Source of the DNA: Psammoneis japonica
Taxonomy: Eukaryota
NCBI GenBank assembly: GCA_008632985.1
Contig: QPGO01000080.1
Span: 1-64,000, forward strand
Direction: 5' to 3'
DNA length: 64,000 nt
In this document: in pieces, positions 1 to 56,113 of the stretch
How the letters are laid out: each line of letters starts with the position of its first letter
How positions within the stretch are numbered: position 1 is the stretch's first letter
Made by a program: the position numbers and the translations under genes
Notes under the pieces: model-generated
Told to the model about the DNA's origin: nothing
Database searches by the model: none
The model's input: the letters and a program-made list of their open reading frames with translations, nothing else

Positions 1-11
1 TCCAAACAGCA

Positions 12-3000
12 GTGTCCTCGTCTCTGCTCAATGTGGTTCATGATGTCGTTGCAGGCAAGGACCATCAATTGGTGGACATCCCCATTGTCACCACTGGTGC
101 CATCATTGAGACCCAGCGTGGTCCCGTCATCGCCATCCTCCATCAGTGCGCATGCACGGGCAAGGGCAAGACCATTCATTCCTGCGGCCAGCTTGAATGG
201 TGCAAACAGGATGTCAACGATGGCTCTGTCAAGGTGCCCAACGGCTTGCAACGCACTGCCACTCCTGATGGCTGTGTCATCCCCATTGACATCAAGGGCG
301 GCCTGCCTTGTGTTGCCATGCGACCTTGCACTGACGCCGAATGGGACACCCTGCCCCATGTCATCCTCACCGGTGATGACACATGGGATCCTTCCGTCCT
401 CGATCACTCTGTCACTGATGACGACCAGTGGCACGATGCGATCTCTGACCTGCAGGACGATCCCACTGCCAACCCATTTGACGAATGCGGCAACTGCCGT
501 CATCGTGTTGTTGTCAACGAGACCATCATGTCCGCTTCCTTGTCTGCCGATCACGCGTCCGCCCTCGATGATCACCTCATTCCGAACGACGACGTGTTCT
601 ACGAGTGTCATCTGCACGCGATTGACCCCAAGGACGACGACGTTCTGCCCCTGGAGCGCACTGTGCAGCCCAAGGACCCCCCCTTCGAGTCTCTTCGGCC
701 TCACTTTGGCTTCCTACCTGCCGACACGGTCCATCGTACTTTTGACTGCACCACGCAGTGCATCCGCATGCCCGCCGGCACACACCTTAGGAAGGCCTGC
801 AAATCACCCAACCCCGCCCTCAATGTGCACCGCCGCAACGAGCCTGTCGCCACTGATGCCATTTGTGCCGACACCCCGGCCGTCGACTCTGGTTGCACCA
901 GCGCCCAACTGTTTGTTGGCACTGAGTCCACCGTCACTGACGTCTGCAGCACCAAGACGGACAAAGAGTTTGTCAACACACTCGAGGATCAGATCCGTGA
1001 GCATGGTGCCCCATCCAAACTCATCAGCAACCGTGCTCAGGTTGAGATCAGCAACAAGGTGCTCGGGATTCTACGAGCCCTCTTCATCTCCAGCTGGCAA
1101 AGTGAGCCTCACCAGCAACACCAAAACTTTGCCAAGCGTCGACACCAGACCGTGAAGCGCACGGCAAACACTGTCATGGATCGTTTCGGTTCGCCTGCCC
1201 ACACATGGCTGCTGGCGCTCATGTGCGTGTGCTTCGTGCTCAACCATGCAGCGTCCCCACGTCTCCACTGGCGCACGCCCCTTGAGACTCTCACTGGCTC
1301 CACCCCGGACATCAGCCCATTGCTTCGCTTTCACTGGTGGGAACCCGTGCACTTCCACCTCGATGACTCCGATTGGCCGTCCGAATCCCGTGAGTTGCGT
1401 GGACGCTTTGTTGGCATTGCTGAGCACGTCGGCCACCAGATGACCTTCAAGATTCTCTCTGACGAGACTCAGAAGATCCTCCACTGGTCCAACGTACGAT
1501 CCGCTGCCACCGATCCTGCCGTTCGAAACCTGCATCTTGATCCTCCTGATGGGGAGCCACCTGAACCCATCATCAAATCTCGCCATGACGACACTGAACC
1601 CATCATCAAATCTCGCCATGACGACAACTCCGTCGACTCTCCTGATGGGGAGATCAGGACACCCAAGATGCCAGTTTTTGATCCGCAAGACATCATCGGA
1701 CGCACCTTCCTCATGCAGCCACAAGAGGACGGACAACGCCACAGAGCTCGCATCGTCAAGGCCGTCGAAGACCATGAATGGAAAGTGAACGGCAATCCCA
1801 AGCTCACTAAGTTCGTCTGCTCTGTCAACAACGACAAATGCGAGGAAGTCCTTGCCCACAATGACATCATGAATCACATTGAGCAAGAAGACGAAGACAC
1901 TGCTGTTTGGAAATTTCGACGCATCGTGTCACACAAAGGACCTCTGAAGCCTCATGACCCAACCTGGAAAGGCTCAAGCTACAACATCATGCTTGAATGG
2001 GAAAGTGGGGAGATCACGTCCGAGCCTCTTGCCATCATCGCCAAGGATGACCCCGTCACCTGCCCCATCTATGCACGAGAGAACGGACTTCTCGACACTG
2101 ATGGCTGGAAGCGATTCCGCACCATCGCGAGGCGCCAGAAGAAGCCACTTCGCATGGCCAACCAAGCCAAGCTTCGCTCCTTCCGCACTGCACCTCGCTG
2201 CAAGTACGGATGCGAAGTTCCCCAGAACTGCAAACACGCCATGTCACTAGACGAACGCAACGGCAACCGCAAATGGGGAGACGCAACTAATCTTGAGATG
2301 GACCAACTCGGGGAGTGCGAAGTCTTCCATGACTGCGGGCCCTTCAAGTCTTCCACTCCTCCTGCGGGACACAAGAAGATCTGAGTGCACCTGGTGCACG
2401 ACGTGAAACACGATGGTCGCCACAAGGCATGACTCGTAGCCGATGGGCACCTCATGGACGCACCCATCGACAGTGTCTGCTACAGAGCAGTCTCCCTCCG
2501 TGGCCTTCGGCTGATGATTTTCCTGGCCGAACTCAACGAGTTGGAGACATGGGCCACCGACATTGGCAATGCCCACCTTGAAGCCACCACCAAGGAGAAG
2601 CTCTACATTGCAGCCGGACCCGAATTTGGCAAACTTGAAGGACACATCCTTGTCATCCACAAGGCCCTGTGTGGACTGCGCAGCTCCGGTCTCCGCTGGC
2701 ATGAGCACTTCGCCGACTGCCCACGAGCTGAAGGCTTCTTCCCCTGCCACGCCGAACCCGACATTTGGATGCGCAGGAATGGCGACCACTGTGAACACAT
2801 TGCCGTTTGTGTGGATGACCTCGCCATTGCCATGAAGGACCCTCAATCTTTCGTCGACACTCTCACGGAAAAGCACAAGTTCAAGCTCAAGGGTGCGGGA
2901 CCCATTGAGTTCCATCTGGGTTGCGACTTTTCCCGGGATCCCGACGGCACCTTGTGCCTGTCTCTGCGCAAGTACATCGAGCGCATGGTCGACAGCTGCA

Positions 3001-3980
3001 CCCGACTGTTTGGGGAGAAACCTGCCACCAACGCCCTGTCACCTCTGGAGAAGGGTGACCACCCCGAACTGGACACTTCTGAACTGCTGGGGCCCGATGG
3101 CATTCACAAGTTCCAGTCTCTTGTTGGTTCACTCCAATGGGCAGTGTCCCTTGGTCGAGTTGACATTGCCGCGGCCATCATGTCACTCTCTAGCTTCCGA
3201 GCTGCGCCCCGTCAAGGCCACTTGGATCGTGCCAAACGCGTCTGTGGGTGCCTCTCCAAGATGCGACACGGCACTCTCCGCGTTCGCACGGAAGAGCCCG
3301 ACCACTCGGATCTCCCTGCTCTGGCCTGTGAATGGATGCATTCTGTGTGCGGCGAAGCAGAAGAGATGATCCCGAAGGACGCTCCACCGCCCCTTGGCAA
3401 GTTCGTCACTGCCACCCACTGCGTCGATGCAAACTTGTGCCATTGCATGCTCACCGGATGCTCTGTCATGGGAATGCTCCACTTCCTCAACAAATTCCCG
3501 GCTGATTGGTTCTCTAAGAAGCAAGCCACCATGGAGACTGTGACCTGCGGGTCTGAATTTGTTGCCGCAAGGACTTGTGTTGAGCAGATTGTCGACCTGC
3601 GCATCACCCTGCACTGCCTTGGCATCCCGATCCGCAATGTCAGTTGCATGTTCGGTGACAACAAGTTGGCTGTAGACAGTGCCACCATCCCGCACTCCAA
3701 GTTGCACAAGCAACACACCGCACTGTCGTTCCACCATGTGCATGAGGCAATTGCCTCTGGTTGCCTTGAGCTCCACTTCATCGAAGGCTCCCGCAACCCT
3801 GCTGACATTCTCAGCAAGCATTGGGGTTGCTCCCAAATCTGGGACCTTCTCCGCCCCCTCATGTTTTGGAACTTCATTCCATCCGAAGTCGAGTCTGTTT
3901 CTGTGGCTCCTCAAGCAAACTGGGGAGTGACAGGATTTGAACAGGATTTGGGTGCGCGCGAAATGTCGCGTGCTGTTTAG
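12..3980 (+). pseudogene. pol: copia pol polyprotein (IN-RT-RH) with nonsense codons and pervasive Tyr>Cys/His
   Basis: ORFs 12..2384 and 2454..3980 are in the same frame. About 7 Tyr in ~1320 codons by my count. Confidence 0.9.
1561..1626 (+). repeat. 33-bp in-frame tandem duplication (EPIIKSRHDD x2) in the integrase C-terminal region
   Basis: ctgaacccatcatcaaatctcgccatgacgaca at 1561-1593 and 1594-1626. Confidence 0.95.
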
Positions 3981-4100
3981 TTTGCCGCACAGTTTTGTGT
4001 GCTTTAGTTCTGCGCGTTCGTGCGCGATGTAGTTTGCTTTCGAGCCACAAGGCTCACAAGAATGACAACAGCAGCCCGATTGCACCGACTTGCACGTCTT
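3921..4100 (+). repeat. Polypurine tract (GGGGAG) followed by probable 3' LTR starting TGACAGG at 3928
   Basis: ggggag|tgaca directly after RNase H. LTR end not identified and no second LTR in the window. Confidence 0.55.
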
Positions 4101-5479
4101 TTGGCTCCTGTGATGGTCTCTGAGCAGAGACTCATCTGCCATTTAGACAGCAGCAAGGAGTTGTTGTTTGAATTCTTGCCATTTGCCTTCAATTTCTGTC
4201 AGTCACATTCTTGCCTTGGTGTTTCTTCAACTTGCTTCATTGGCAATGCAGTCTGATGGCCTTGTTGTCATTGGTGCAAACACTCTGTTTTTTTCTGAGG
4301 GGCAGTCTTGGTTGGCATGTTGCCACCAACTGCCTTCATTCCATTGGTCTGATCAAGTCTTTCAGCTGTCCACATTGTGAACAATGTGGTTTCAACTCAG
4401 AGAACCAGGTGCAGTGTCATCTTTCTCATCACTGCACCACTTCTGCTGCTCTCCCTTTGCCAGCAACACAGCCACATTCAAGAACTGAAATGTCCTCCCT
4501 GTCTCTGGTGGGACATTAGATTCTTCACTTCCTTGGGATGCTGCCTTTGTTGCCTCTCTTGGGTTCAATGCTGACAGACCCAAATGTCCCCATTGCTGGG
4601 CTCCCTTTTCCAACATTGCCCCACATCTCCAGAAGTGTGCAACCTGCCTTGAGAAGGAGGAAGCACCTCTTTGACACTCTGCCACTGTTTCAAATGCTGT
4701 CACTCATTTTCCTCTCCAGACAATGACACATTTGGCAACAATGACAACAACTGGAACAAACAAATGACAAGCAGTCACCAAACCAGCACAAGCACTGCTG
4801 GCATCAATGAAGTTCAATGGGCTGCAACACTGAGTGGCAAAGAAGGTGGGGGGGACAAATCACCTCAGCAAAAAAATTGAAACTTGCCATCCCTCCATGT
4901 GATTGCATGCCGCCACCAGCAACGCAACCAAATTGATGCTTGATCATCAGCATGCAACGGCAGCACAGGGAACGTGCATTCTGGCAATGCTGCCACCACA
5001 TCTGTGTGACAACAGCACAGCATTTAACCAGTGGATGACAATGGAGAAAGTGCTAATTTGTGGACAAGTGGATCATTGAATGTGTGCAGACATCCATTGT
5101 TAAAATATGGGTTTGTTCTGCATGGGCAACAGCTGGAGCAGTTGGAGAGAGGGAGGGCATCAGAACAGAAGAGGGGCCAGTCAACTCAGTTGTGAACAAA
5201 CAAAGAAGAGGGGGGTGGCCAGCTCAGTTGTGAGTGAATGATTGCAGGCTCAGGAGCAAATTTTAAAACCATGCAAATCTGTGGTTGCATCAAAAAAGAA
5301 GATTGAATGGTCAACACAGTTGTGAGCAACAAATTGTGGGGCAGGGAAAAATTTTAAAACCACACAAATCTGTGGTTGCATGCATGAATTGCTGGCAATG
5401 GAGCACAATTCAAAGCAGCAGAAGGTTTTGAAAAAATCAAATGTTGAGTTAGAAACATGCACTCAAAAATGATGCAAAC

Positions 5480-6747
5480 ACCTGTTTGAGTCAATCTGGG
5501 AGAAGCAAGCAATGGCAAAATGGAAGTGCACTCATTTTGTAACTTCTTGTGTCACAAACAGATGGATTGCAGCAAATGGTGTGACACAAGAGCTGCCTGT
5601 TGGAACGAGAAAGAAGATGGAGGAGACGGTTGTCACAGGAGTGACAATGCAAGATGGTGGGAGCACATCATCAAGTGGCAAGTTGGGTTGAGGAGAGCAG
5701 GACAAAGACTGTTTGACAGTTTGCACTGGCAAGTTAGAGTTTGCTGCTTTGGCATGCTTGGCAGTTTCCATGAGTCCTGAGGCAGTGGGATTGTTCAACA
5801 TGCAAACAAACAAGTGCAGGGAATTGAACCAACTCCAATTGGCAGTCAGGGACTCAATTTCTGTTGTGATTCCCGCTGAGGGATGTCATGCAATGGATCA
5901 AGCTCCAGCAGTTGGCAAGAAATTTACAGGGTCCATGTTGACAAAGGTGGCCAATGAAAGTGTGTGGCCACATTGCAAGTTCATGATCTTTAATGGAGAA
6001 CTTGCAGTGGGAGGAGAGTGCATGAAAATGGTTCTGCAAGAGTCAAGGAGCATGGCATCTGTGCCGGAGGCATTCTGGGATGCATGAAAAGAGGTGTTCA
6101 GGAAAAAAACTCAACCACAAAAGGAGTGGCATGCAGGACAATGTGAGGAGGAGGATGACAGGTGAGCAACACAGTGCATGTGTTTGACAGTTGTGGACAG
6201 GATTGTCCAATGGGTCAAGTGTGGATTGAGCATTTTTGTCAATGCAGCTTTTGCTGCTTTGGAGGGGTTGCTGGTTGAGTGCAAAGATTTGATCAAGAGC
6301 AGGGCTGACAAAGACACATGCACGTGGTTCTTGGAAATGGCTGGTGGGCCAAGCGCTGTTTGGCAGAAGCACAGCCAATTTGCTCCACCAAGAGCAGCTC
6401 ACCACATCATCCTCAAAGGCCTTTGCTCTGCTGGCATGCTCAAAACTGACATGACAAGGTGGTCAACATGGCAGAAAAATTGGAGAAGGACAACAACATT
6501 GCAAGGCACAGTCAGAAAGCTGATGGCAGAAGATGCTGCAGCTGCAAAGCACATGGTGACGTGGGGGAATCAGCTGAGAGGAACCAAGGATGGAGCAAGG
6601 AGGGGATCAACAAGTGCAATGAACTGGTGTGTGAGTGGGTGATGAAAAACTGAGAGGAGAACATGAGATTTGGTGCGAATGGAAGCAAGAGACGGCAAAC
6701 TTGTCCAAGGAGGCAGAGAAGAAATGCAAGAGAGTGGAGAAGAGGAA

Positions 6748-6786
<39 letters not shown>

Positions 6787-6900
6787 GGATGGGCCATGCC
6801 AATGGGAGAGGACCTGCCCCTGCAGCCAGTGGCTGCCAGCAATGGTGCAGAAGCAATGGAACAGAGCAATGACAAAGAGGCAAGCTGCAAGGCAATTGTC
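5480..6900 (+). pseudogene. Heavily decayed uncharacterised ORF, probably transposon-associated
   Basis: Protein-like fragments in shifting frames (e.g. QGWSKEGINKCNELV); TpA and CpG both nearly absent. Confidence 0.3.
6752..6783 (+). repeat. (GA)n microsatellite
   Basis: Direct run gagagaga of ~30 nt. Confidence 0.95.
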
Positions 6901-7042
6901 AGTCAAGCTCAAATGGCAGTCACAATGTTTGCTTTTAAAACAACAACAACACAAAGAGACAAAATGCAGAAGGACTTCACAGGCAAAGATGGTGGATTGC
7001 AAGTGGCAAGAGATGTGACGAAGGAACAAAGAACAGCAAAAA

Positions 7043-7812
7043 ATGTTAAAAAGGGTTGAGATTGAAATCATGGACAAGAACATTCACACTTTAAAGTTTA
7101 AAGTGGGGTGTGCCCCAGAACCAAGAAGCTTGCAAACTCAATTGGCTCTGAACCAACATTTGAAGGAAGACTTGGCTCACAAATTCACAACAATCTGGGG
7201 CTGCAGTCAAGAAACACCCAGATTGTTGGCATCCCAGATGACAATGTGGCTGGCATGTGGGGACTCTGCTGCAGAAACCATGAGAAAATTAAGTGAGGAG
7301 AACAAGCCAGAGGAGCTGCAACATCCACCGGGCACAGCCGCACGAGAGAAGGACAAGGCAATCTGCCAGGGGAAAGCCATCCATCACAAGGTTGAAGGAG
7401 TCAACAGAGTTTGTAAAAGGGTTGCAAAGGAGTGGGGCATGGTGGCACTGTTTGATGCAAATGAGAGAACCTGCTCACATTTTCAGGCTGTCAAGGCTTG
7501 GAAGCAACCAGCGCGCATTTGTCAGGATGAAGGAGAGGTGCTTCAAGATCATTGCAATTGGCTCATGAGTGTTGTTGAAATGCTGGTGGAAGGTTTTGTG
7601 GCAGAGTCATCCTGCGGAAGAAATCACCAAGAAAGAAAATGGGTTCAGCAAGGAGGTCCCAACTTGGCTGAGGAGTGGGGGCACTGCAGGTGTTGGGCAC
7701 ATGTGTGGCCAACAAGAAGCCTGAGGACAAAAGCTTTGTGCACAAAACAAAAAGAAGCAGATCAAGTGCTGGAAATGTGACAAGGTTGGGCATGTGAAGA
7801 AGGGCTGTCCTT
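7043..7812 (+). mobile_element. gag: Decayed LTR-retrotransposon gag remnant with CCHC zinc knuckle
   Basis: 7767-7808 translates CWKCDKVGHVKKGC (C-X2-C-X4-H-X4-C), preceded by a gag-like helical ORF (7043..7780). Confidence 0.7.
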
Positions 7813-8737
7813 TGCTCAACAATGATGATGATGATTTGTCACTGGAGTTGGATGAGGTGTGCATGGTTTTGTGCCAGAAATTGGCCCAAACCCTTTTTTT
7901 GGGACTCACAACCCCTGCACATGGCTTGTTGTCATCATCTGCCAGCAAGTGTGCACAAGGTCATGGACAGAGCAAAATTGCATCATCCTTAAAAGTGCAG
8001 CTCATGCGAGCTGGCATCACTCGACCATTTGTCTGTTGAGAAACCACCAGTTGCCAGTGGTCTCTCTTTGCTCATCACTTTTTCAGCTCACCACAGGAGA
8101 AGCAGCTCATGATTTTGAGAATCACTCACTTTTCACACTGTTCCACTTTCAATTGGTGCTTTGACTGTTCAATGAACACATCAGCATGCATCAAGACCTT
8201 CAACCATCACCATGGCAGGCAGTTCTCCCACCAAGCACGCCAAATCGATGAAAACTTGGCCAACCCTCCATCCAAGACTTTCATCTCAAAGAAGCACATC
8301 ACCCACCACACACACACAATCACATCGCACCATGAGTGTTTGCCCCCACATCACCACTGACATGGGTGATGCCGAGCATTGTCCAGCATTCAATGTCAAC
8401 AAGAACGCCATCACAAATGCATCAGGATTGTCCTGTGGCGACCGTCTCACCATCATGGGTGCTTTTGCCAATCAGACCAGCCTCATCGAAGTCAAGACTG
8501 CTGAATGGAAGAGCATGGGGCATCAATCACTCAAGGATCCATCAAATCTCACCATCATGTCTTGCCACAATGCCACTGGAGCCATCATTTCTAACTGTCT
8601 TGACAACAACAGCATCTTCAAACCTGTCCAGGATGGTGCTGTTGCTGACATCTGCGCCAATCATGTCATGCATGGGGCCAAAACAGCATGCCCTTGAAGT
8701 GCAGATGTTGTTGCATGATGCACATCATTGTCTCAAG

Positions 8738-11700
8738 ATGACACTGATGTCATTGTTGCTTCTTGCGTGGCATGTTCACATTTGTTTCTGCAATCAATCC
8801 GTTTTGCTGAAGTCACTTCTCAAAACAAGAAACAAAAAAAAGTGGACACAGACACACACGGGAAGCAAAGAAATCCTTTTCATTGTTGTGAATGAAAAAC
8901 ATGAAGCACCTCAGGTGCTGTCTGTGTTTGTAAAGCACAAGAATGGAAAAGGAAAACTTCTTGCCAAGAGATTGTCTCATCAGAAGTTTGGCACACCACC
9001 AAAACAGAGCATTGCTGCCACAGAAGGAATGAGCTGGGTGTCATTGAAGAAGCCACTGGATGATCCAAACATCCAATTGTTCAAGCCAACCATGAGATCA
9101 ATGCTCTGTGATCTCAACAATGTCACAGAAACCAAGAGGACTTCCATCAATTGCTGGAGGAACAAATGTCATGCAGGATGAAAATGATGCAAGCTGGTTG
9201 AATGTGGGATCTTCCTCCAAATGTTGAATGCGTGAACAACATGACAGTGTGCATCATTGACAGCAGAATGGCATTTGGTCATCCAGATCCACCAATTGAC
9301 AATGTGATGGGTGCCAACACCAGCATTGGTGACTGGACAAGTGATCCATGCTCCCATGGAACACATTGCTGTGGAACAATCACTGCTGTTGTTGGAAACA
9401 ACAACATTGGTGTAAAAGGGGTGCTGGGCAATGCTTCATGGTTCAACTTGCACATTGCAAAGTTTTTGGATCAACATGGAAATGGGTCTGAATTTCTGTT
9501 GCTGAAAGGTCTAGAAAGCTGCCTGGAAATGGGAGCAAAGGTCACAAGCATGAGCATCAGAGGGCCGGTTTTGATTGACATTGCTCAGCAAGCATTTGAG
9601 AAGGCCTGCAACAATGGAGCATTGTCATTGGCTGCATCTGGGAATGATGGGAATGATGATTGTGCCTGCCCGGCATCTGTGCCTTCTGCGGTGGTGGTGT
9701 TGGCGATTGACGATGAGGACAAAATGCTGTGGTCTCATCTCAGCACAATGACCAAGTTGAGCTTGCTGCACCAGGTGTTGACATCATCTCAACAGCATCA
9801 ACAGGTGCAGGCAGCGAGTGCGGTTATGATGAATGGAGTGGCGAGGTTTTTGTGCATGAACTTTTCTTCCCCAATGATGTTGTTGCGTTCTCAACCTGAT
9901 GTTTTCACCTGTTGCGCCCCATGGCCAGGTGCTTCCATGGCAACACTTTTTGTTGCCAGTGCAGCAGCTCTGGTGTGGTCACACTTTCCACAATGCATCA
10001 ATGACCAAACTTGAAATGTTCTCGCACAAATGGCCAACAACAGAAATCAAGGTGGGTGCAGCCAGGAGAAAGGATTTGCAGTCATGCAAGCCAAAGCAGC
10101 CTCAGACCTCCTTGTCAAGGAAGGATGCTCAGCAGCTGGAGGCAAATCACCCTGCAGCTTGTCAGATGGAGTGGTTGGAGGTTGCAAACAAGATCCTCTT
10201 TGCGCACCACCCCCAACACCTGCCCCAACTGGCTGAATTTCCTTGCAATGAGAAGGTCTTCATGCTGAATCTCATGATGGATGAGTTCGGCAAAGAAACT
10301 TTTTGGGACCTGGCAGACTCCAACAACAATGTCATTGATCAAGGCAGCGGGCATCGGAATGAGCATGGCTGCATTGTCTGGCTTTGCGTGCCGCTGGATG
10401 CATGCACATTTACAATCCAAGACTTGGAAAGTGATGGAATGTGTTGCACTCATGGGGCAGGCTCCTGCCAATTGCACTGTGATGGAAAGCTAAAAAAAAC
10501 GGTGGCACCTTTGCACATTCCAAAAGAACCATCTTTGGGCCTCCAATGCCCACGGATGACACTCCAGCCCAATGTCTGTTGCTCCATCTGGCTTGCCAAC
10601 AGGTCAAGACAAAACAATGACCCAACCTGACCTTCGTCTGAGCCTTGTGCTGATGACAAAGATTGGGTTTTTACAACAAAGAAGGGAACTGACAAGACCT
10701 GCCGACACCTCAAGGACAAAAAAAGCACAGAGGTGCAAGCTTGTGGGTTTTGACACAAGGGGACAGCCAACAAGAGGCTTTCAAGCCTGTCCAGTCACCT
10801 GCGGTTTGTGCAATCCAGATGCATTTTTCTTCCAGACACTCCTTTCCCCACAGTTGTGCCAGTGCTTGTGGCTCCAATGCCTCTTCCTGCCAAACTGCCA
10901 TCCATGTCACCCACGGCCTCTCCAACCCAAGTGCCCACAAGGCCCCCATCTAACTCCCCAACTCTCACTCCAACAAAACAACCAACGTCATCACCCACCT
11001 GACTGCCAACCATGTCACCAATGGCCTCCCCAACCTGCATGCCCACAAGGCCTCCATCCAACTCCCCAACTCTCTGTCCCGCACAAAACAACTGACATCA
11101 TCACCCACCAAACTGCCAACCATGTTGCAAACAACCTCTCTAACCCAAGTGCCCACAAGGCCTCCATCCAACTTCCCAACTCTCAGTCTGACAAAAGAAC
11201 CCACCAAAAACCCCACTCCATCACCAACAACATTTCCTCTCACACCACACCCCGCATTTGATTGAGCTGTTTCAGCATTTGATGTGCAAAATGGCTTGTT
11301 GTGTAGAGACAACTTGAGTTGGGCGTGTGTGTCATCCAAAGGGATGTGGATTGACTGCGACAATTTAAGGGAGTGGAATGTGGGTTTCTGCACCTCATTG
11401 TCAGAGGAAGGAAAATCCAGAAAGGTGGTTTCAGGGGAAGAAGCTTGCCCTTTGGCATGCAACAAATGCAAGGCTGAAAGGGGCACTGCAATTTCTGCAA
11501 ACGGCAACAATTCCCCTCCTGGATGTGGCTTGTGGGATGGAAACAAGTTTGACAAAGCAGACACCAACAGCATGAAGAACACCTTTGGAAGATGGGTTGT
11601 TGTTTGAGGCACTTCCTTGCCAACAAGAGATGAAGCAGTTGTGGTGGGTGTCAATGAAAATCTCCAAGTCGCTGCTCAAATGTGCTCAAAAGGCAGCTGG

Positions 11701-12690: not shown

Positions 12691-13137
12691 AGAACAGCAC
12701 CAGTTGACAACACGCAGCCCTCAGCAGTTGCAAGGGACAGTGCACATTTAGCTACATTGTGTGGTTTGTTGGCGAAAACAACACTGCAATGATGTCGGCT
12801 AGACACACTGATTTGACCAAGGACTCGACGATGAGTTCATTTGCCAGGTGCGGTTCCTTTGAGTTTATGAGATGCAGAAAATGTTGACATGCGACATTGC
12901 ACTTTTCTGCAGGCTCAATGAAGATGCTTTAGAAGACATTCTAGACGGAAATCCCAGAACCACAGTCCACGGTTATCCGCACCTTGCCAATCTAATGGCA
13001 GCAGTGCAAATCGACAAACAAGTTCAAGAGCATTTTGTAGAGCATCCCATGCAGAAATTGGGGTGGTGGGAAGGCCCTTTCAACTACACAGAGTGAGCAA
13101 CAGCGTTTCGTGTTCTCGTAAAGAGCAGTCTATGCTG

Positions 13138-46454: not shown

Positions 46455-47215
46455 CTTGCGCAGCAAATTGCCATCGACGATGACATTTTTCTCAAGCTCT
46501 CACAGGACGACTTTGCAATGTGCGCTTTTGTCACAATGACTGACTGCACTGTTTAAAACATGAATGTGCAAAGAAAGTCCCCCTGACAAAGTCTCGGTCA
46601 TTCAACAATGAATGCATGACAGTGACAGGTCGGGGAAAGCAGAGCTCGGCACACTGGCATGATGATGTTTTGCTTTCGAACGGAGGTTTTGCTCTTGGGA
46701 CTTTCATGACTGAATGCGTTCTTGTGCTTTGTCAAACTAAATGTCTTTAATGACAAAAGACTCTGGGACACATCGCTGTCATCGCCATCGTTACAACAAC
46801 GCCCGTTCGTTCATGTCGCCGATTTTTAGCGATGATGCGTGTAGCGCGCACGACGTTTCCAGTTCCCAGTGCAAAAAACAACAAAATATGTTCCAAAAGT
46901 CCAATCGTCTTGCCATCCATCAGCCGGTTGTTTTGCACGTGGTGTGACGTGTGTTGACAAAAAGGTCGAACTTTTGTCGAATTTCCAAAATCGTTCCCAT
47001 CAATCCAATCTAAATCTACAATGGCAAATCGAATCGTCAATCGCAATAAAGCGTTTCCCTGCAAGCTAGAAGTCAACTGGGCTGTTACCAGCATTCTTTT
47101 GTGGGACCTCGTTTTGACTGTCGTCTCGGTTCTTGCTCTGAATGCTTGTGGCAATCTGATCTGAATAGCCTCTCTCCCATAGCAGCTCAGCACACAAGGC
47201 AACGTCAAAGTGGAA

Positions 47216-48522
47216 ATGCAAACAAATGGGCTGAATCAAACTGTACGGCTACCTGCATTTAGCCAGAAGACAACACACAACCAAGAAGTGCTCGTTTGTT
47301 GTTGTCGTCGTCGTTTCTTGATCCTGGCAGTGCTGTTTGTATATCTTGTTGCAAGCCTTTCTTGTTGGACACAACGCCGGCTGCTCAAATTGACTGATCG
47401 AGTTTCCGCATCAACCAAGTATCAGCTGAAAAGGAAGCATGCGATGGTCACGCCTCTGCTAGAGCTCTCCAGGCAGTTTCGGCCGCCACCGTCCAACATT
47501 ACTGCTGCATTGTGTCTCAGAACAGTCTATAGAGGAAGAAATGACGGAATCATGGAGTATGTTCTCCGTTGGGTGGCATACCATCGCTTGTTGGGATTTG
47601 ATGAGATTCTGGTCTGGTACGTGAAAGATTTGACGCCTCCCGGTATTGAGCTGCTAGAAACGTTGCCCTACGTGACATTGGTGGAGAACACACGGCATCC
47701 GTTTATGGATCCTAATACTACACGTCCGAAGAAGAATCATCCAGGCGGGCAAAAGGGTGACATTGCAGAGTGTTTGAAGCTGACTGAGAATCGGTTTGAT
47801 TGGGTGTTCTTGCCAGACGCCGACGAATACTTGTATTTTGCCGAGATGGTTCGTTTGAAAGACTTTCTCCTCATGCACAAGGACAAGAAATACCTCAGTT
47901 TTGGGAAATGGATGTATGACAACCGATTGCAATTCGCTGGTGCCAAAAACGACTTGATTGGTTTGGAAAAGGTAAGAACTACCTATTTGATATTTGACTG
48001 ATATTTTTGACATCGGTGCACCTCCTCACTTCTGTTCTGCAGTACCCTTATACGTATAAAAGTTACTGTTTTCCGGACGGACGTGACAAGCAATGTCCTG
48101 GCTGGCAAGGCAGATCTAAAGTGCTATTTCGTAGAGACTCATTTGATGATATGCCAGTTCATGGAATTGAGCGCTACATCAGCAAGGAGGACCCATGCGT
48201 TTCGGACCGCTGCCATTTCAATACAGATGTTGCTCATCTCAAAGAGTGGAAATCTGGGTTTGGACTTGGCAAGAAATCACCCTTTCATTTCCTGGGAAGC
48301 ATGAATCTGACGGTGAGGAGCAATGAATCAAGCATCGAAGGGTTCACCTTCCTGGGAGAAATGAACGAAACACTAAGCAATGAGACGAGGTTGGTTGGCA
48401 ATTTCCAAGGAATAGGTCGATTCGAGATGAACGCGGAGGGGAAAAACATATTGTATCGTGATGACAATTTGCAAGACTGGTTTGACTTTTTGGCTAGAGA
48501 ACCGAATAGTAAGAATTCATAG
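47216..48522 (+). CDS. GT-A fold glycosyltransferase (GT92/DUF23-like), 2 exons (47216-47971, 48043-48522)
   Basis: TM anchor, WVAYHRLLGFD and DWVFLPDADEY motifs; 71-bp GT-AG intron 47972-48042 restores the frame. Confidence 0.85.
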
Positions 48523-49430
48523 ACTTAGGTTTCTCATCAACCGTTTGGCAAAAACTTGTATGCACCGGTAGCTACAGTTAGAGTACTGTAGCGTATGATA
48601 GCTGTAGTGATCGATCACGCGTGCGTACGCGTGTGCGGAAGGCAAGTTTGAAGCACGACGACTTATTGGTGATCGAATAATATGACTGTCGCCAATTCAA
48701 CTTCCAACGCACAACGCTCGTTCTCCGAAGCTGCTCCTCGCACCCCAGTTTAGAATTGAGACGAACCGCACGCAGCAAGACCCACCTGCGAATCTCGTCG
48801 TCCTTTGACCCATGCCTTTTTTGGAGGAGGGTGCCTCCATGCCAAGATGACCGGTCACAGCATTTGCGCTTGTGACCAGTCAAACTTTCGGTTTTTTCAT
48901 CACTCTCACTTTTCCATCTTTGTTGAGACAGGAGCTCTGATCAACATGCCTGGACCACACCAAAACATTGGAAAAGCCATCTTTTTGCTTTCTCTCTCTC
49001 CCACCATCACCATGTCTGATTGCTTTGCCTCTGGCCTTGATGATGGGGCTTTTGTCAACCTTGCGAACGACGAATCTTTCTCGAGGCTGATGTGATTTTG
49101 CCGCTCTCATCATGCTCTCCTGTGTCACCCACTTCTCGGGCCCTGCTCTCTGGGATGGGTCATTGTGGGGGCAATGAGAGCTTAAATCCTTCCCTTCAGT
49201 CTTGGTGCAATGACCGGTGACAAAGGACAGTCTGACATTGAACGTGCGGAGTCAGGGGGGTCATTTCCCCAAACCCGGATTTTGCCTTTGATGAATTGGC
49301 AACGCTGGACACTCAAAAGATGTTGCCACCACTTTGAAAACACGCAATCAGCATCACTTCAGACAGGCTCAAGGAACCCCTCCCACAGTGCCACCCCTCT
49401 CAACAGATCCAGGTTGCGAAAGCAACACGG

Positions 49431-51400
49431 TCATGGCAGATCCAACCTTGGATGGCGAATGCGAAACACGCTGATTTCTGTCATCTTGCGTTTGTCAACT
49501 TCAGGCAAGGTGAGCTGGATTTTACACTGACTGTCAGTCATGAAGAGCCCTCCTTTGGTTCCCCAAATTTTGGTGGTGGATTGTTTCGTTCTGAGTTTCC
49601 ATGTGAATTTGTGCAAAATCATGGTTGACAATGTTCCGCTGTCAAGGAGAACACGTGGAGGCTTGTTTTTTGCCTTGCCCAAAGGTGCACTCATGCAGGC
49701 AATGACTGCTGGACCAGTGTGAATTGTCTCAGCTTTTTTCCAGGCTTTCCAATGTCCAGCTGTGTGCAAGACTCCTTGAGCAGAGTGAGTCATTCTTCAG
49801 AATCGCTGCTCATCAATTTTTCAAATTGATGGTTTTCCTCAGTGTTGGCCAGCTGCAAAGTTTTCTGCAGCAATCAGGCTGCAATCAGTCAATTGCACTG
49901 CTGCAGAGCAGTGGTTGGTTGGTTGCAATCATGCTTTTTTCATGGTCTGAGGAGCTGATTGCAATCGTGGTTGCACAAAATTGCCCTGCCGGCCAAGCTT
50001 GCCCCCCACTCAGGGGCGCCCTCTGCGCAAGAGCACACTCCATGCAGGAGAAGAGCGATTTCACTAATTTCAGCCAGAAAAAGAGCTCAAATTTAGGCTG
50101 CAATCAACTGCAACAGTCCATTGTGATTGCAGCCGTTGCACTTTCCCAACAATCCAGTCATTGCAATCAAGTTTGTGCAACAGCGATTGCAGTCAAAGTG
50201 AGGCTGATTGCAGTCAATCCCAGCAACCAGTTGACACTGGTGGTTTTCCTCACTGAGGGCATCTGAGTTGCAATCTTTGATCTTGTGCTTTGCACTGTTG
50301 TTGGAGTGACTTGACTTGAACATTTTTTGAACTGCCTTGTCAATCATGGCATTCAGTTGTTCTTTGCAAGCAACATTTCCATCATCGCGATTGCCATGAT
50401 TGAACAATGCAATTTTGGATCACGCTCATAATTTCCATTGTTTTCTTTGGCAAGGTTTTTAATGACCCAGCACTTGTGCATGTCATGAGTGTCCTTTTTG
50501 CAGCAGTTGCACCACTTTTCAGGCTCATCTTGTTTGGCACCAGAATGGTGCCATTTTTGGAACCAAGATTGGGTCCATCTTTGGCTTTTGATCCAGGCTT
50601 GCTGCTGGCATCAGCCTTGGTGTGAACAGAGTCAAAGATGTCCTCAGCAACCTCCAGATGCTCTGTGAACTCTGCCAACTCATCACAGGCATGCTTCAAA
50701 ATCTTGAAACCTCAAAGCATTGATTGGCGCTGCCATTTGCATGGTGCAAGATTGCAGAGAACATCCTTGAGCTCATTGACCTTGAGCTTCTGATCTTCTT
50801 CAAAGGGAGGACAGCACTTGAGGTCTTTGTTGACTTTTTGAACCCAAGCTGCAATTTCTTGGATCTTCATGGTCTCTGTTTTCTTGAGATTGTGATGCAA
50901 ACAATGCCTTTGAATCTGAAGAGGAGCATTCTTTGGAAAGATGTGCCTCTCGAGGCATTGCAGACATTTTTCAAAGGATGCTTTGCTCTCTTCTTCTTCT
51001 TCAACATTTGCAGCACCATTCTTGAATGCATGCAGCACATCTCCTTGCAACAACATGCACACAAGATGGAACTGATCAGCTCATTTCTCAATGTTCTGGC
51101 TCGCCAAAAGTTGTTTGCAGCTCTTTCAAAATTCGAGGCATGCCTTGCTTCTTGTGATGCTTGACATTGATGGTGCAGGTGCGGCTGTCTTTCTTTTCCA
51201 GGTAGAAGCACTGCTCTGTCTTGTGAGGCATTGTTTTGGTTTGAGCATCTTTGGCTGGAGATTGAGTCCAATGGTTGAGAAACAATTTTCTCCTGCCTGA
51301 AGGAAGACTTGGGGTCAGCAACATGAGGTGAAAGCTTCATTTTTGTCTTGTTTTGCCTTCTGTGGTGTGCGTGCACAATGCACCATGCTTGAAGAATGAG
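49431..51400 (-). mobile_element. Decayed Ty3/gypsy retrotransposon gag-protease remnant
   Basis: Gag-like MKIQEIAAWVQKVNKDLKCCPP...ELKDVLCNLAPCKWQ; aspartic protease RVLLDSGT...WGTKGGLF; boundaries approximate. Confidence 0.7.
49840..50239. mobile_element. 400-bp non-autonomous TIR element (hAT-like CAGTG ends) nested in the gypsy remnant
   Basis: Ends cagtgttggccagctgc / gcaaccagttgacactg; flanks atggttttcct (49829-49839) and gtggttttcct (50240-50250); many internal GATTGC/GCAATC motifs. Confidence 0.7.
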
Positions 51401-52295
51401 CACAAACAAAAGCAGAGTAAAGTGCAAAAAATGAAAATTGTGATGTCAAATTTTGCTTGATCATTTTGTTTTTTCTCCAAACGAGTTCTCAACGGTCAAT
51501 GGCCTGAAGCTTCTGCACTGCTTCTGCAGACAAAAGGCAATTCAGAGAATGCAGTCATGACAACAGATTGTCCAGATGCAATTGCTGTTAACGTGTGAGA
51601 TGTCGACATCATCATCAATCAATTGCACCTGCAATTTGTGACTTCCAATCAACTCTGTGTGATCATTCTGTCCTTTGTGCACATCCATGACCATGGTGGA
51701 TTGACGCACACATGATGTGCAATTGTGATTGTGCACATGACAGTCACACACTGCATTCACATCCCCAATTTTACATCAAGAGCCATTCATTGAGAGCGGT
51801 CACCCCCTCGTTTGTCCCAGAATTGCCGTGCCATTTGAGCAAGGCTTTTATTTTTGCATTTGTAAAATTTGACATCTGGTCAATTCTGTGTGACTGATCT
51901 GTCCTTTGTGCAAACCCACAATTGACGTGTGATTGAAAATGTGACAATGTCAAAATCTGTGCATGTGCATGTGAGTGCACACAACAATGCACAGAGCACA
52001 GTTGCCAGCTTGCCACAAGTGCGTTGCAACATTTCGATGTGACACCACATGGAATCCTGGGTTGTTTCCATGCAGTGGCACATTTTTGTGCATTTGGTGC
52101 AAAATGAGACTGCCCCAAAAACTCGAAAATGTGCGCTGCACATTTGGCCAGTCCCCAGCCCGTTCAGGCAAAAAATCAAACCACTCAGCAGTGGTTCACA
52201 AATTGTGCAGAGCGTGAAACTTGCAGCTGACACAATGAAGCAGCACCTGCACATGTGTGACTTTTGACAGAGTCAAACAGCCATTGCTGTCAATG

Positions 52296-53024
52296 CATTG
52301 TGTTGTCAGCAACCACTCATGTGTGGAGCACGGTCACCATCAAATTGCCATCATGGTTGTTGGCAGTGATTTTGTTGCCCAACAGAAACCACCACACAGC
52401 AGCACCACAAAACTGAACAAATGCTGCCATGACAGCCAAGAATTGGGTGCAAGACAAGAGAGAGTGTTGAACAGCAGCACATTGACAGGTTCTAGAGCTG
52501 TGAGAGATTTTGTGCTGCTGGGGCCACCAATTGAGTGACAGTGGACCAATTGCTGACAGCAAACAACTGCCCACATCCACAACATTGTGTTGTCAGCAAC
52601 CACTCATGTGTGAAGCACGGTCACCATCAAATTGCCGTCATGGTTGTTGACAGCAATTTTGTCACCCAGTGGAAACTGCCACACAGCAGCACCACAAAAC
52701 TTGACAATTGCTGCCATGACAGCCAAGAATTGGGTGCAAGACAAGACAGAGTGTTGGACAGCATCAACAGGTTCTAGAGCTGTGAGAGATTGTGCTGTTG
52801 GGGGGGCACCAATTGAGCAACAAAGTGGGCCAATCGCTGACAGCAAATGACTGCCCACATCTGTGACATTGTGTTGTCAGCAGCCACTTGTGTGTGGAGC
52901 ATGGTCACCATCAAATTGCTGCCCATGGTTGTCAGCTGTGATTTTGTCACCCAATGGAAACTGCCGCACAGCAGCACGCCACAAAACCACTGAACAAATG
53001 CTGCCATGACAGCCAAGAATTGGG
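52296..53024 (+). repeat. ~285-bp tandem repeat, about 2.5 copies
   Basis: Units start cattgtgttgtcagcaRccact at 52296, 52583 and 52867. Confidence 0.93.
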
Positions 53025-53249
53025 AACATTGTCCATCTTCCAGGTCAACCCACATGGTGGCAGCCATGCAAACAGGTGCATCTTGCAAGGGTTCATGCTT
53101 GTCAGAGTGTGGGTGTGTGACTGCAGTGCCCAATCAGCGCTGGAGAACACAACAAAAAATTGGAAGCCATCACAGCACAAGCATCAGCGTGCAAGTCCAA
53201 GTTGTGTGTCATGCGCGCTGCAGCATCGGACTTGCGACTTGCGAGCCGA

Positions 53250-54438
53250 TGCTAAAAAGTGATGGACATCTTTTGGGAATCACCTGGATGACAGGTGCAG
53301 AACAAGACGATTCTAGACCATTCAGTGCTGGCACAACTGTTCACTCCTCCAATCACAGTTTAGAATCACAGCAGGAGAATCAGCAGGAGAATCAGCAGTC
53401 AAGGATGGGTTTGCCCCTGCGAAGAGCCAGTCACCGACAAATGTCATCACCAGGACAAACTGACAAGGTGGCTCATGTGATTCGATCACGTTTCATGCAG
53501 TTTCAACCAAATCTGTCAACTCTGGGAGAGGCACGACTTCGGTTGTTTGAAACATTTTGCTTGCCGACCATTCAATCACAAACCAACCTCAACTTCATCT
53601 GGCCAATCTTCACAGACCCGTCCCTCCACGAGAATCTCAAGTGGTCACTCCTGAGACTCTTGAGAGCTTTGAGCCAAAACACATTTTTAATTGCAAGCAA
53701 CAAATTTCCCAACAACTTTTGAACAACAAAGCACCTCATTTCAACAGACACAGAAATTTGGCACGGAAACACCACGCTCCTGCAACAATGCCCCAAGCAC
53801 AATCCAGATTCTTGCACCTGCTGGAGACGTGTCTGGATGCCGACGATGGCTTGTTGATTGATTTTGCTGATGATCTAAGCATCAAGCGAGTGTCTTGTTG
53901 AAGAAAAGGGAAGGGGATTTTTCTTGGAAGGCTTGGTGTGTCCCACAGCATCTCAAATGGCATGTGGAAAACAATGGCCGCCTCACAGTGTCGAGTGATT
54001 CTTGCATGTCGACGGGTCTCACGTGGGGACATGGAACTGCCACAGCACCCAAACGTCGACCCACAAGCAATCATGCCAGAACAAAGTAGACATTTCAAGA
54101 TGCAAGGATGCCAACGACAACAATTGTTGGGATTTTGTCAAGGCCACCGCGATTCGTGCTCGCACCTTCACGTCGGCTGGCATGAATGGATTGGGGTGCA
54201 CAACAACCTTGATGCTCAACAAACTAATCAACAGAATGATCTGCTCGACAACTTTGGCATTGATCCATCAAAAGCATTGGCCACTGGAAAGTGTCTAAAG
54301 GCTCACAATCAAAAGGCAATTCTTGAGGATGCTCTGGTTGGTCAATGCACTCCCGCTGGCAGAACTTGCAAGAAAAGCAGTTTGGCAATGCTGAACAATT
54401 TGCCAGAGCAAACTGCCAATGCTTCAAAGCCATGTTGA
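53250..54438 (+). pseudogene. Putative rhamnosyltransferase-like glycosyltransferase pseudogene
   Basis: SRFMQFQPNL...ARLRLFETFCLPTIQSQT...WPIFTDP and ETCLDADDGL motifs; stops and frameshifts; TpA-depleted. Confidence 0.65.
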
Positions 54439-55387
54439 CGATGACTGCATGGCGAAACAACTTCTTTTGTCTGCTCAGTGTCTCAGGAAGTTTGATTTTG
54501 TCTGCACATGTTGCTTGGGTTTCCATGATGACGAAGAAGGAGAAGTGCGGCGGTTGCTTTCTCAAGGCTGTTTCTGACAAAATCGCCGATTGCAATCCGA
54601 AATGCCTTTTTTTTTGCTTTCATGTTGCAGTTCTCCATGAGCATTGATCTCAACTTGAATTGTTCGATGTCGAGTGCTTTGCCTCACGCTCTCATCACAA
54701 GCAGTGCAAGTGCCTTGTCGTGCATCAATGTCTGCATTGCGGTTCTCTAGAGTCATCTGTCAGAGTTGTTGCAGGTCTTGTGAACAAGGCAATTCAAGTC
54801 GGTGGCCTTGAAGATCATCAGCCCTTTTTCCCTGGTCACTCTGCTGCAAGTGCGGTTGGAGTTCCAGGTGGACTGTGTTCAGGCGCGGATTTCATCATGC
54901 TTCCCCGGATGCCCTACAACGGCATCTGCATGGTTTTGTGGTGGGCTTGAAGAAATCCTGTGCAAAGGATGTCCTCCAAGCAAGGCAGGCAGGAAATTGG
55001 CTCACATGGCACTGTGCAGATTGGGGGTGGCAAACATGACCAGCTTTCTGCAAGTTCTTGTGGCTGCACTGATGGCATCAAGTCCTCTTGTTTCCTCATT
55101 TGTGTTCGACAAAACAACTGTGCTGTGTTCCATTCATCTCCCATGCCAACTTTTTTCTTCCACTGGCATTTGTTCTCAGGTGGATGCAGACGACATTCCG
55201 TTGGTGGTGATCTCTGCCAGCAAGCTCTGTTGAGTTGCTGAGACTAAATTTGAAGCATTTTTTGAAGCTTTGAAGTCAGACAAGTCAAATGAAGGAAAGA
55301 GCCAGATCACAGAAACTCTGTGCTTCAACCACGCTCACTGGTTGATCCACCAGATGTGGAAGATGATCATCTGTTTGTCTCCAAGAT

Positions 55388-56113
55388 TTGATCCTGTGTC
55401 AGCTGTCAAAGGAAGTGTTTTCCCTCATGTCATTTGAGGTTGCCGAATCGATGGTCATTCCATTGGCCAAAAAGGCCAAAACAACGGAGATGATGCAGTT
55501 TGACACTCTGGCATGCAACTGCCTTGCCCATTTAGATGCCACCAAGAAGTTGGCACTTGGTGAAATGGTCCTTGCTGCTGAGAACCAAGGGCAGCATTGC
55601 ACTGTTGTGGATGAAATGACCTTGCCATTGGGTGTCACCGTAGAGGCAGAGGTCCTGGATGCCAGTCACCAGAAGGAAATGCTTGTTGCGACTGAAACAC
55701 ATGCAGATGGAGTTTGTGGATTGCCGACCGAACACGAAGCTTCTGTGTTCCACAGTTCGGTCCGGTCGGTGTCACTCTTGCTTGGCGATTTGGTTCCATT
55801 CAAAAATCTCATGGCTCTTGAAGGGGCAGGGCATTGCAATGCTGCGCTTCATCAGACCAACAAGGACTGGTCGTGTCGATTGGTTCAATGCAAAAAAAGG
55901 ATTTGGCATCATCAAGCCCGACGACCGATCCGAAACCATTTTTGTTTGTGGTGGCAATGTGATGGACGGGTCTTAGTTGAAAAAGGCAGACATGGTGTGA
56001 GGCAGGCTTCTGTCGTTCAGCTTGCTTCGTCACTCACAACCCAACCAAGCACGCAAAGTAGCCTTCAACTGGCGAACATGAGCAACCCTGAGTGTCTTCA
56101 TCTGGGAACCTGA
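55388..56113 (+). pseudogene. Decayed gene with C-terminal cold-shock domain
   Basis: ~55864-55960 translates TGRVDWFNAKKGFGIIKPDDRSETIFV (cold-shock RNP1/RNP2-like); frameshifted relative to the upstream ORF; TpA-depleted. Confidence 0.65.

Follow-up and report, generated by a model that had tools for sequence, protein, structure and literature searches.

In ascomycete fungi, repeat-induced point mutation (RIP) works as a genome defence and makes TpA from CpA, which creates stop codons. To our knowledge, only cytosine-based systems (RIP, APOBEC and the decay of 5-methylcytosine, 5mC) are established as mutational genome defences. Here we analyse a stretch of 64,000 nucleotides from the diatom Psammoneis japonica (GenBank assembly GCA_008632985.1, contig QPGO01000080.1, positions 1 to 64,000 of the forward strand; hereafter the window), in which transposons and other repeats have lost most of their TpA (TA) dinucleotides, very probably through A:T>G:C hypermutation after insertion. 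The only precedent for hypermutation of this type in chromosomal DNA is a preprint of 2026 on a rhizarian alga, Bigelowiella natans, in which TpA is changed to TpG or CpA (Mettrop et al., bioRxiv 10.64898/2026.01.13.699255).

According to the part of that preprint available to us, 231 of the 302 nuclear point mutations in B. natans mutation-accumulation (MA) lines lay in integrated nucleocytoplasmic large DNA virus (NCLDV) and virophage DNA. All but one of these (230/231) were A>G or T>C, all at TpA, and they arose in some lines only, at a rate of ~1e-7 to 1e-6 per site per generation of vegetative growth. The same source reports 324 TpA-depleted coding sequences, enriched for reverse transcriptase (RT), endonuclease-RT and DDE domains, and puts forward an ADAT2 homologue as a candidate (10.64898/2026.01.13.699255). 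For diatoms, the part of another source that was available describes DNMT4 as related to the fungal RIP enzyme RID and as having no assigned function (PMC9998398).

In the window as a whole, TA was strongly under-represented (observed/expected, O/E, 0.25), TG and CA were over-represented (both 1.53), and CG stood at 0.62. A two-state segmentation on TA counts separated seven depleted (LOW) blocks with TA O/E of 0.03-0.13, four gene islands at 0.48-0.57, and three short intermediate stretches (25401-25900, 29201-29800 and 30301-31700) at 0.35-0.45. The blocks and islands are given below, with a strand only where one applies.

1-12700: LOW block 1; TA O/E 0.08, TG 1.78, CA 1.61, CG 0.41, with 61 TA in 12.7 kb; holds a copia retrotransposon fragment (1-3980) and then older TA- and CpG-poor DNA (4001-12700).
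12701-14400, minus strand: gene island, used as a control; TA O/E 0.48.
14401-25400: LOW block 2; TA O/E 0.07, CG 0.39; contains old repeats without annotation, a tandem repeat and the 3' portion of a long interspersed nuclear element (LINE), and its open reading frames (ORFs) had no Pfam match.
25901-29200: LOW block 3, which takes up two-thirds of the LINE ORF on its 5' side; TA O/E 0.13, CG 0.79.
29801-30300: short LOW stretch; TA O/E 0.12, in surroundings of 0.39-0.45.
31701-32700: LOW block adjoining a gene island; TA O/E 0.03, with 2 TA in 1 kb.
32701-41800: gene island, control; TA O/E 0.57, CG 0.93; unique, at a depth of 47-95 in the public sequencing run X1.
41801-46700: LOW block with inverted and dispersed short repeats; TA O/E 0.06.
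46701-48700: gene island by segmentation; TA O/E within 0.48-0.57.
48701-56100: LOW block with a tandem repeat and gene fragments; TA O/E 0.06, CG 0.38.
56101-64000: gene island, control, with Myb and GT7 genes (Pfam); TA O/E 0.52, CG 1.07.

A first-pass annotation of the window had described few TpA in the repeat blocks and plenty in gene islands, which these values bear out, and had put the end of the affected DNA at 56100, exactly where the segmentation placed it. It had also reported that nucleotides 1-599 contain no TpA, and we found 0 where base composition predicts 28.1.

Tallies per kb were made over 40,300 bp of LOW sequence (six of the seven blocks, with 29801-30300 left out) and 20.7 kb of gene islands. 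TA density was 4.7 per kb in the LOW blocks and 37.5 per kb in the islands; ~87% of TA is gone. The corresponding O/E values were 0.07 vs 0.54 for TA, 1.71 vs 1.22 for TG and 1.69 vs 1.24 for CA. Per kb, LOW blocks had 32.8 fewer TA and 28.5 fewer CG (together 61.3) and 59.3 more TG plus CA, and therefore loss and gain balance. AA, AT, TT and the remaining dinucleotides hardly differed. Summed over seven block edges, there were 1-8 TA per 100-bp bin inside the blocks and 25-41 in each of the first two bins outside, and the edge is therefore a step (≤100 bp) and not a gradient. Depletion was uniform across heterogeneous blocks of 5-13 kb that span different elements.

These counts bear on a rival explanation, error-prone repair synthesis of the Pol-eta type (WA>WG, where W is A or T) recruited to heterochromatin. 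Pol eta makes A>G errors at TA, as this explanation requires. However, its WA motif should also erode AA, which was not depleted (O/E 1.20 in LOW blocks vs 1.14 in islands). The dependence on the 3' neighbour described below, with TAA spared, is not a known feature of Pol eta. In addition, near-saturation at TA in an ORF of 1920 codons, which has kept its frame and carries few other substitutions, points to a base-specific enzyme. We therefore disfavour Pol eta and regard it as a very improbable source of the pattern.

The direction of change was read from Tyr codons (TAY) in two unrelated retrotransposons.

3-3980, plus strand: Ty1/copia-type retrotransposon fragment, cut by the start of the window, with ORFs at 3-2384 and 2433-3980 (RVT_2, E 2e-16).
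23576-29338, minus strand: LINE-type retrotransposon ORF with endonuclease and RT (Exo_endo_phos, E 1.9e-10).

The copia RT-RNaseH ORF (2433-3980) was aligned with its best 120 database homologues (53-67% identity, one carrying a Cylindrotheca label), and a consensus was called at ≥70%. It matched the consensus in 271 of 330 columns overall and in 270 of the 313 columns that are not Tyr. Only 1 of the 17 Tyr columns was kept; 12 had become Cys, 3 His and 1 Phe. By comparison, A>G-type changes affected 2 of 78 Lys, Asn, Glu, Asp, Gln and His columns (one Lys>Arg, one Asp>Gly). Set against the 15 of 17 Tyr columns changed to Cys or His, this indicates that A>G is strongly enriched at TpA relative to other contexts. 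The next commonest class of change was of the CpG type (four Arg>His, one Arg>Cys, one Arg>Gln and two Thr>Met).

The LINE ORF behaved similarly. It has ~1920 codons, one in-frame TGA and no frameshift, and is multi-copy as judged by contig depth. A search returned 6971 homologues at E≤0.001, and we aligned the ORF with the first 45 of at least 900 amino acids among the 150 matches listed. At a 50% consensus, 3 of 33 Tyr columns were kept, while 13 were Cys, 10 His, 4 Phe and 3 other residues, and 443 of 594 non-Tyr columns were kept. At a 70% consensus the 13 Tyr columns divided into 3 kept, 5 Cys and 5 His, with 278 of 324 non-Tyr columns kept. Retention of residues other than Tyr was thus 75-86% across the two elements. 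The replacement of conserved Tyr by Cys or His that had been proposed from a few motifs holds in 15/17 copia columns and 23/33 LINE columns when scored against homologues. The motifs themselves (CVDD, KALCGL, IGNAHL, TCGSEF, GHVDD, SSHRAEACG, HCDN and ATDAIC) are all present, and the codons of ATDAIC (GAT|GCC..TGT) are compatible with an origin from ATDTIY.

Could these elements simply be Tyr-poor by nature, or could TpA be avoided by selection, for example to escape UpA-directed RNA decay? TpA is mildly low everywhere in the window, with O/E ~0.5 even in gene islands, as a native bias would predict. The retrotransposon ORFs contain 0.1-0.6% Tyr, 3.3-4.5% Cys and 3.3-5.6% His. For copia the values are 0.6% Tyr, 4.5% Cys and 5.6% His, compared to homologue medians of 4.64, 1.09 and 3.84%. 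There were no Tyr-poor relatives of the LINE among the 150 matches listed, where the minimum was 2.16% Tyr. Across 80 related copia loci from metagenomes, TA O/E ranged from 0.31 to 0.99 and never fell below 0.31, in a search whose patterns demanded AYLE or T[YCF]GSEF and so were biased against mutated relatives. The copia family is therefore not natively TA-poor. Moreover, the Tyr residues replaced are conserved and catalytic, and non-coding repeats are equally affected. An explanation from native composition or selection is hardly credible.

Neither can the pattern be ascribed to decay of CpG. CG density was 62.0 per kb in copia (1-4000), 56.9 in the LINE and 54.7 in genes, while TA density was 5.0, 8.5 and 37.5 per kb, respectively. 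In these young, well-preserved elements TA is down 4-7-fold and CpG is intact, and TA loss is therefore faster than CpG decay. In older blocks both TA and CpG have been lost (CG O/E 0.04-0.4). CpG decay is a separate, slower process. The earlier contention that the loss of TpA is due to neither RIP nor CpG decay agrees with the removal of TpA and with the normal CpG content of copia and the LINE.

A self-comparison of the window (self-BLAST) found only seven repeat pairs, comprising tandem, inverted (~400-bp) and short dispersed copies. They are located as follows.

10890-11204, plus strand: tandem repeat with units of ~108 bp; 5 adjacent CA~TG double differences and 2 TA~TG/CA differences between units (where the tilde separates the states of the two copies).
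19606-20486, plus strand: tandem repeat of 2 units of ~440 bp at 92% identity; 25 mismatches, among them 12 CG~TG/CA, 2 TA~TG/CA and 1 CA~TG double.
42190-42586 with 42763-43166, and 41769-42191 with 46476-46924: repeat pairs of the 41801-46700 block, at 80-84% identity, differing at TA~TG/CA and CA~TG.
52296-53024: tandem repeat of ~287 bp; 12 CA~TG doubles between units.

Over the seven pairs we counted 230 difference events: 16 TA~TG/CA, 58 CG~TG/CA, 35 adjacent CA~TG doubles, 53 other transitions and 68 transversions. CA~TG accounted for 35 of the 81 adjacent double mismatches, and the next classes had 6 each. Such a double is one ancestral pyrimidine-purine dinucleotide (TA or CG) that was resolved differently in each copy after duplication. 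Four paired-copy examples cited earlier were all present as described. Mass balance, the polarity of Tyr changes in two unrelated transposon families and the differences between copies, both within the window and among genomic copies in contigs of public runs, agree with the proposal of A>G on either strand at TpA. Since tandem, inverted and dispersed copies differ at TA~TG/CA and CA~TG, the further claim that the process acts on the chromosomal DNA of several repeat classes is also upheld.

The same copies speak to ADAR-like hyper-editing of transposon transcripts that is then fixed by reverse transcription. Its A>G chemistry with a 5' U preference is similar, as the B. natans authors remark in the part of their text available (the preference is as cited in 10.64898/2026.01.13.699255), and the two best-polarised cases here are retrotransposons. 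However, depletion is just as strong in tandem units, in the inverted ~400-bp copies, in fragments of genes and in DNA without annotation, and copies next to each other are not alike at these sites. Uniform depletion over 5-13 kb blocks containing different elements, with step edges, is not what editing of transcripts predicts, and nor are hits on both strands and undepleted AA. The 3' preference of ADAR, moreover, differs from the order T>C>G>A that we find. RNA editing is extremely unlikely to be the cause.

An artefact of assembly, basecalling or polishing, such as a modified base in heterochromatin that a long-read basecaller miscalls as G or C, would also yield TA-poor repeats. The window was compared with assembled contigs from public runs X1-X3, all of one sample and study, placed on 22001-42000 at ≥80% likeness; X2 covers 12 of 30 bins and X3 none. 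In all, 1525 contigs were placed, 209 of them at ≥99%. X1 depth was ~47-95 (single-copy) across the gene island, compared to 168-2813 in the repetitive part. Two contigs are informative. One of 2983 nt differs from the gene island by 1 letter. The other, of 1015 nt and at a single-copy depth of 49.5, covers 31947-32837 (2 TA per kb) with 13 other letters, where normal TA density would need ~30 more differences.

Changes from window to contig ran in both directions, with 397 G>A and 245 C>T compared to 335 A>G and 262 T>C, and with 45-108 per class of transversion. Classes of variant were taken from 40 of the 1830 variant rows. The contig had TA where the window has TG or CA in 11 of these, and the reverse held in 6; a further 6 were CA~TG doubles (three pairs), and the remainder were 9 CpG-type changes, 6 other transitions and 2 transversions. 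Thus, the TA-poor state is present in read-derived contigs, and copies elsewhere in the genome carry the mutation at other TA sites. An artefact would fit the confinement of the effect to repeats, where short-read polishing is weakest, and the runs may be the assembly's own data. Against it stand the match to the gene island, the TA-poor sequence at single-copy depth, and the 6 listed sites at which contigs read TG or CA and the window keeps TA. TA-poor contigs together with two-sided TA/TG/CA differences therefore make an artefact unlikely, and we judge its probability to be minimal.

The signature also occurs in unrelated public records, P0217, P0181 and L057, which again argues against an artefact. 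The copia homologue P0217 (an ENA record that belongs to a cluster of six) retains none of its 16 Tyr columns (7 Cys, 6 His), compared to 250 of 296 other columns. Other copia homologues keep 4 of 18 (P0181), 10 of 17 (P0183) and 12 of 21 (P0127) Tyr columns, and the metagenome contig L057 (1599-2759), with a TA O/E of 0.29, has His or Cys in 6 of 14. The signature is thus not confined to this window and recurs, to varying degree, in other public assemblies and a metagenome.

Which TA sites escape? The residual tetranucleotides differed widely between the 40.3 kb of LOW blocks and the 20.7 kb of islands: ATAC was found 0 vs 75 times, GTAT 0 vs 59, ATAT 1 vs 51, CTAT 2 vs 58 and TTAA 41 vs 22. 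TTAA density was alike in the two (1.02 per kb in LOW blocks, 1.06 in gene islands), and the 41 sites are scattered over all LOW blocks examined (e.g. 5025, 7047, 21537, 27403, 45970 and 53688). We fitted a multiplicative model in which the T-A-N of each strand survives according to its 3' base, using two independent baselines, one taken from the gene islands and one from the 80 copia loci of metagenomes. Fitted survival per strand was 0.04-0.05 for T, 0.24 for C, 0.39-0.48 for G and 0.63-0.90 for A. The model reproduces the ten symmetric classes and improves on uniform survival by a likelihood-ratio chi2 of 216-256 with 3 degrees of freedom. Survival is high with a 3' A on both strands, and so TTAA persists.

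Composition by itself does not separate this rule from a mirror rule, under which survival depends on the base 5' of the T. When the 38 polarised Tyr>Cys/His events are scored, the 3'-neighbour version leads the mirror by 10-18 log-likelihood units, and the model predicts 23.8-25.8 Cys among them, where 25 were observed. In this organism, the fit makes a wider target of the form 5'-T-A-N likely, with 3' T > C > G >> A and TTAA spared, which is seen here only.

The same events help to weigh a different chemistry, in which the thymine of TpA is modified (TET/JBP-type oxidation to 5-hydroxymethyl- or 5-formyl-uracil) and mispairs with G to give T>C. TA is self-complementary, so thymine chemistry gives the same TG and CA outcomes, and the data do not discriminate between A>G and, on the opposite strand, T>C. 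There are also natural parallels: 5-hydroxymethyluracil in dinoflagellates occurs preferentially at TpA, and 5-formyluracil promotes T>C mutation. However, the 38 Tyr events fit a changed purine with a 5' T and the 3' order T>C>G>A, and the thymine version is less simple, as it would need a 3' A and would also have to depend on which base lies two positions 3' of the thymine. We consider thymine modification unlikely, yet a serious alternative.

Taken together, the analyses demonstrate which class of substitution is involved, that it is specific for one dinucleotide and symmetrical between the strands, that it is confined to repeat blocks with step edges, and that it outpaces CpG decay. We think it very likely that the best overall explanation is context-specific A:T>G:C hypermutation of repeat and transposon DNA after insertion, and we are more confident still in the reality of the process and in its action in situ. 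In outline, chromosomal DNA of repeats and transposons would be hit after insertion, with TA becoming TG where the A>G change falls on the strand read and CA where it falls on the opposite one, to near saturation within blocks and stopping at the edges of gene islands. An enzymatic process directed to silenced, foreign or repeated chromatin would account for this. A TadA/ADAT2-like deaminase is a candidate, which would convert adenine in DNA to hypoxanthine, a base that pairs as G. The natural tRNA substrate of TadA/ADAT2 deaminases is also a U-A step. Adenine-methylation-linked mutagenesis, proposed in the first-pass annotation, likewise keeps candidate status. That the process works by adenine deamination is a tentative proposal, to which we would give a little less than an even chance.

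Coding capacity is killed by missense, TAY codons becoming Cys or His, including the Tyr of the RT YxDD motif. TAA and TAG are removed and not created, and dead elements therefore keep long open frames. Stops on both strands numbered, per kb, 4.3 TAA and 2.7 TAG in LOW blocks vs 15.2 and 15.7 in normal DNA. TGA is nearly the sole stop in LOW blocks, where stop-to-stop ORFs of ≥90 amino acids occur at 4.0 per kb vs 3.19 in islands, and gene finders may over-call ORFs there. As to targeting, repeat homology, small RNA and a chromatin mark are candidates, and both dependence on homology and a role in defence have candidate status only. That a single-copy NCLDV is hit in B. natans suggests that silencing or foreignness could suffice.

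Several observations weigh against hypermutation of repeats with a 3'-context rule. The evidence in the window consists of end states, with no de novo event seen. Two stretches escape: 25401-25900 lies inside the LINE and has near-normal TA (10 TA, O/E 0.35), for which chance and conversion by a copy with fewer mutations are possible reasons, and 30301-31700 keeps a TA O/E of 0.45 even though it is multi-copy by summed depth. For Cys/His outcomes alone, the context model does no better than a coin (log-likelihood -25.6 to -28.1 vs -26.3), and the rule has exceptions, as 3 of the 9 Tyr codons that follow a T had changed to His. The gradient was absent in the partly mutated contig L057 (TAT 0.29, TAC 0.31, TAG 0.40 and TAA 0.35 of expectation). 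A subtilase (S8) fragment, the non-transposon case, is too diverged to score: it keeps 99 of 185 consensus columns and 0 of 6 Tyr, with 1 Cys. On the side of sampling, the variant classes come from a small share of the variant rows, the contigs may come from the source of the assembly itself, and the metagenome patterns favoured unmutated copia.

The stretch upstream of the LINE ORF, 29339-31700 on the minus strand, holds two ORFs (29796-30704 and 30671-31567) without a family match, and an ESM Atlas look-up of the ORF at 30671-31567 gave no usable match. Its summed contig depth is ~320-650, compared to ~50 for unique DNA, and its TA O/E is 0.39-0.45 outside the 500-bp stretch at 0.12. Depleted stretches in the 22-33 kb region likewise have summed contig depths that mark them as multi-copy.

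Most of the older blocks resist annotation. Pfam searches of 140 old-block ORFs found only S8, Rhamno_transf and CSD fragments and weak zinc-finger matches. These fragments, and one gene of an island, are located as follows.

9202-10011, plus strand: subtilase (S8) pseudogene fragment (Peptidase_S8, E 1.4e-20).
52994-53719, plus strand: Rhamno_transf fragment, a rhamnosyltransferase-like match (E 3.5e-7).
55644-55973, plus strand: CSD fragment, a cold-shock domain match (E 1.4e-7).
13138-14334, minus strand: acyl-CoA thioesterase ORF in a gene island (4HBT, E 3e-25).

The ORFs of the S8 region (8336-11258) are broken over several frames inside a TA- and CpG-depleted block. The fragment contains 0.0% Tyr and 4.8% Cys, and its best matches, at 33-46% identity, are not diatom proteins but S8 peptidases from marine gammaproteobacteria. 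An old cargo gene, or one gained long ago by horizontal transfer, is a possible origin. The Rhamno_transf and CSD fragments in the last LOW block are probably pieces of pseudogenes. By analogy with B. natans we considered a viral origin of the depleted DNA, which found no support, as there was no viral hallmark gene among the 140 ORFs. Leakage of mutation into the thioesterase gene, which lies between two LOW blocks, was likewise unsupported. The best homologues of this gene are 59-60% identical, and the matches that carry a name are diatoms (Thalassiosira at 51-54%, Mayamaea at 41%), in keeping with a diatom or near relative and not with Bigelowiella; the database contained none of the window's own proteins. 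The gene keeps 4 of 5 conserved Tyr. At codon 150 it has His (CAT), where all 65 homologues have Tyr, and this single Tyr>His event is no evidence of leakage.

If the preferred reading, A:T>G:C hypermutation at TpA in repeats, is right, it predicts a natural DNA adenine-editing activity with the context TAT > TAC > TAG >> TAA, and diatoms offer transformation and CRISPR tools for finding the enzyme and how it is targeted. There are also practical consequences. In the annotation of diatom transposons, 'intact' ORFs that are free of Tyr and rich in Cys and His would be dead copies in TA-poor DNA that lacks TAA and TAG stops, and ages of transposons that are based on divergence would be inflated at TA sites.

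How does this locus compare with known systems? RIP is alike in being an irreversible, dinucleotide-specific transition hypermutation of repeated DNA that leaves genes intact. Its direction is opposite, as here TpA is removed (4.7 vs 37.5 per kb), and TAA and TAG with it. Deamination of 5mC at CpG also feeds TG and CA and is present in the older blocks, but it does not remove TpA, and copia and the LINE have 57-62 CG per kb, compared to 54.7 in genes, with 5.0-8.5 TA. ADAR and APOBEC in animals are likewise deaminase-driven hypermutation against selfish nucleic acids. They differ in acting on RNA or on cDNA and single-stranded DNA, with A>G on double-stranded RNA or C>T, whereas here chromosomal DNA is changed on both strands and at TA only.

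The closest system is that of B. natans, as far as the available part of the preprint describes it. In both algae the transitions are exclusively A:T>G:C at TpA, give TG and CA, and are confined to particular regions of an otherwise normal genome, and both show long-term depletion of TpA with gain of CpA and TpG and targets of transposon type (here RVT_2 copia and an endonuclease-RT LINE). By analogy, the process in the window would be of the same kind as the de novo hypermutation in the B. natans MA lines. The differences lie in the host, a rhizarian vs a diatom (a stramenopile), and in the targets: those of B. natans are NCLDV and virophage, and those here are long terminal repeat (LTR) and LINE elements, tandem and inverted repeats and gene fragments, with no viral gene recognised. 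Depletion in the B. natans NCLDV region is 0.45 (O/E), and here it is near saturation at 0.03-0.13; B. natans provides de novo events, and the window the end state only. The words 'diatom', 'stramenopile', 'trinucleotide' and 'flanking' do not occur in the available preprint text, and the 3'-neighbour effect is fitted only here.

A saturation-level case in a diatom suggests that the process is widespread in algae of the SAR group (stramenopiles, alveolates and Rhizaria). A bolder proposal, which we hold slightly more tentatively than deamination itself, is that the SAR branches represented by diatoms and Bigelowiella might share a dedicated chromatin- or RNA-guided enzyme that edits the adenine, or the paired thymine, at 5'-TA(B)-3' in double-stranded chromosomal DNA and irreversibly erases TpA in transposons, repeats and invading DNA soon after insertion, an ancient eukaryotic counterpart of RIP with the opposite chemistry. 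If this were true, the enzyme would be a natural A-to-G DNA base editor, and its footprint would be TA-free heterochromatin in which TATA-type signals and Tyr codons are lost. The first-pass annotation had supposed that hypermutation of this type was undescribed; our literature search supports this for diatoms, where it found no description of TpA hypermutation, and not in general, as the B. natans preprint of 2026 is one description of the same signature. Our finding therefore does not open a new category. The window provides a second case of this hypermutation type, independent of the first and more extreme, from a different major algal lineage and with transposons and repeats (LTR, LINE, tandem and inverted) as its targets, and it adds a candidate extended target motif.

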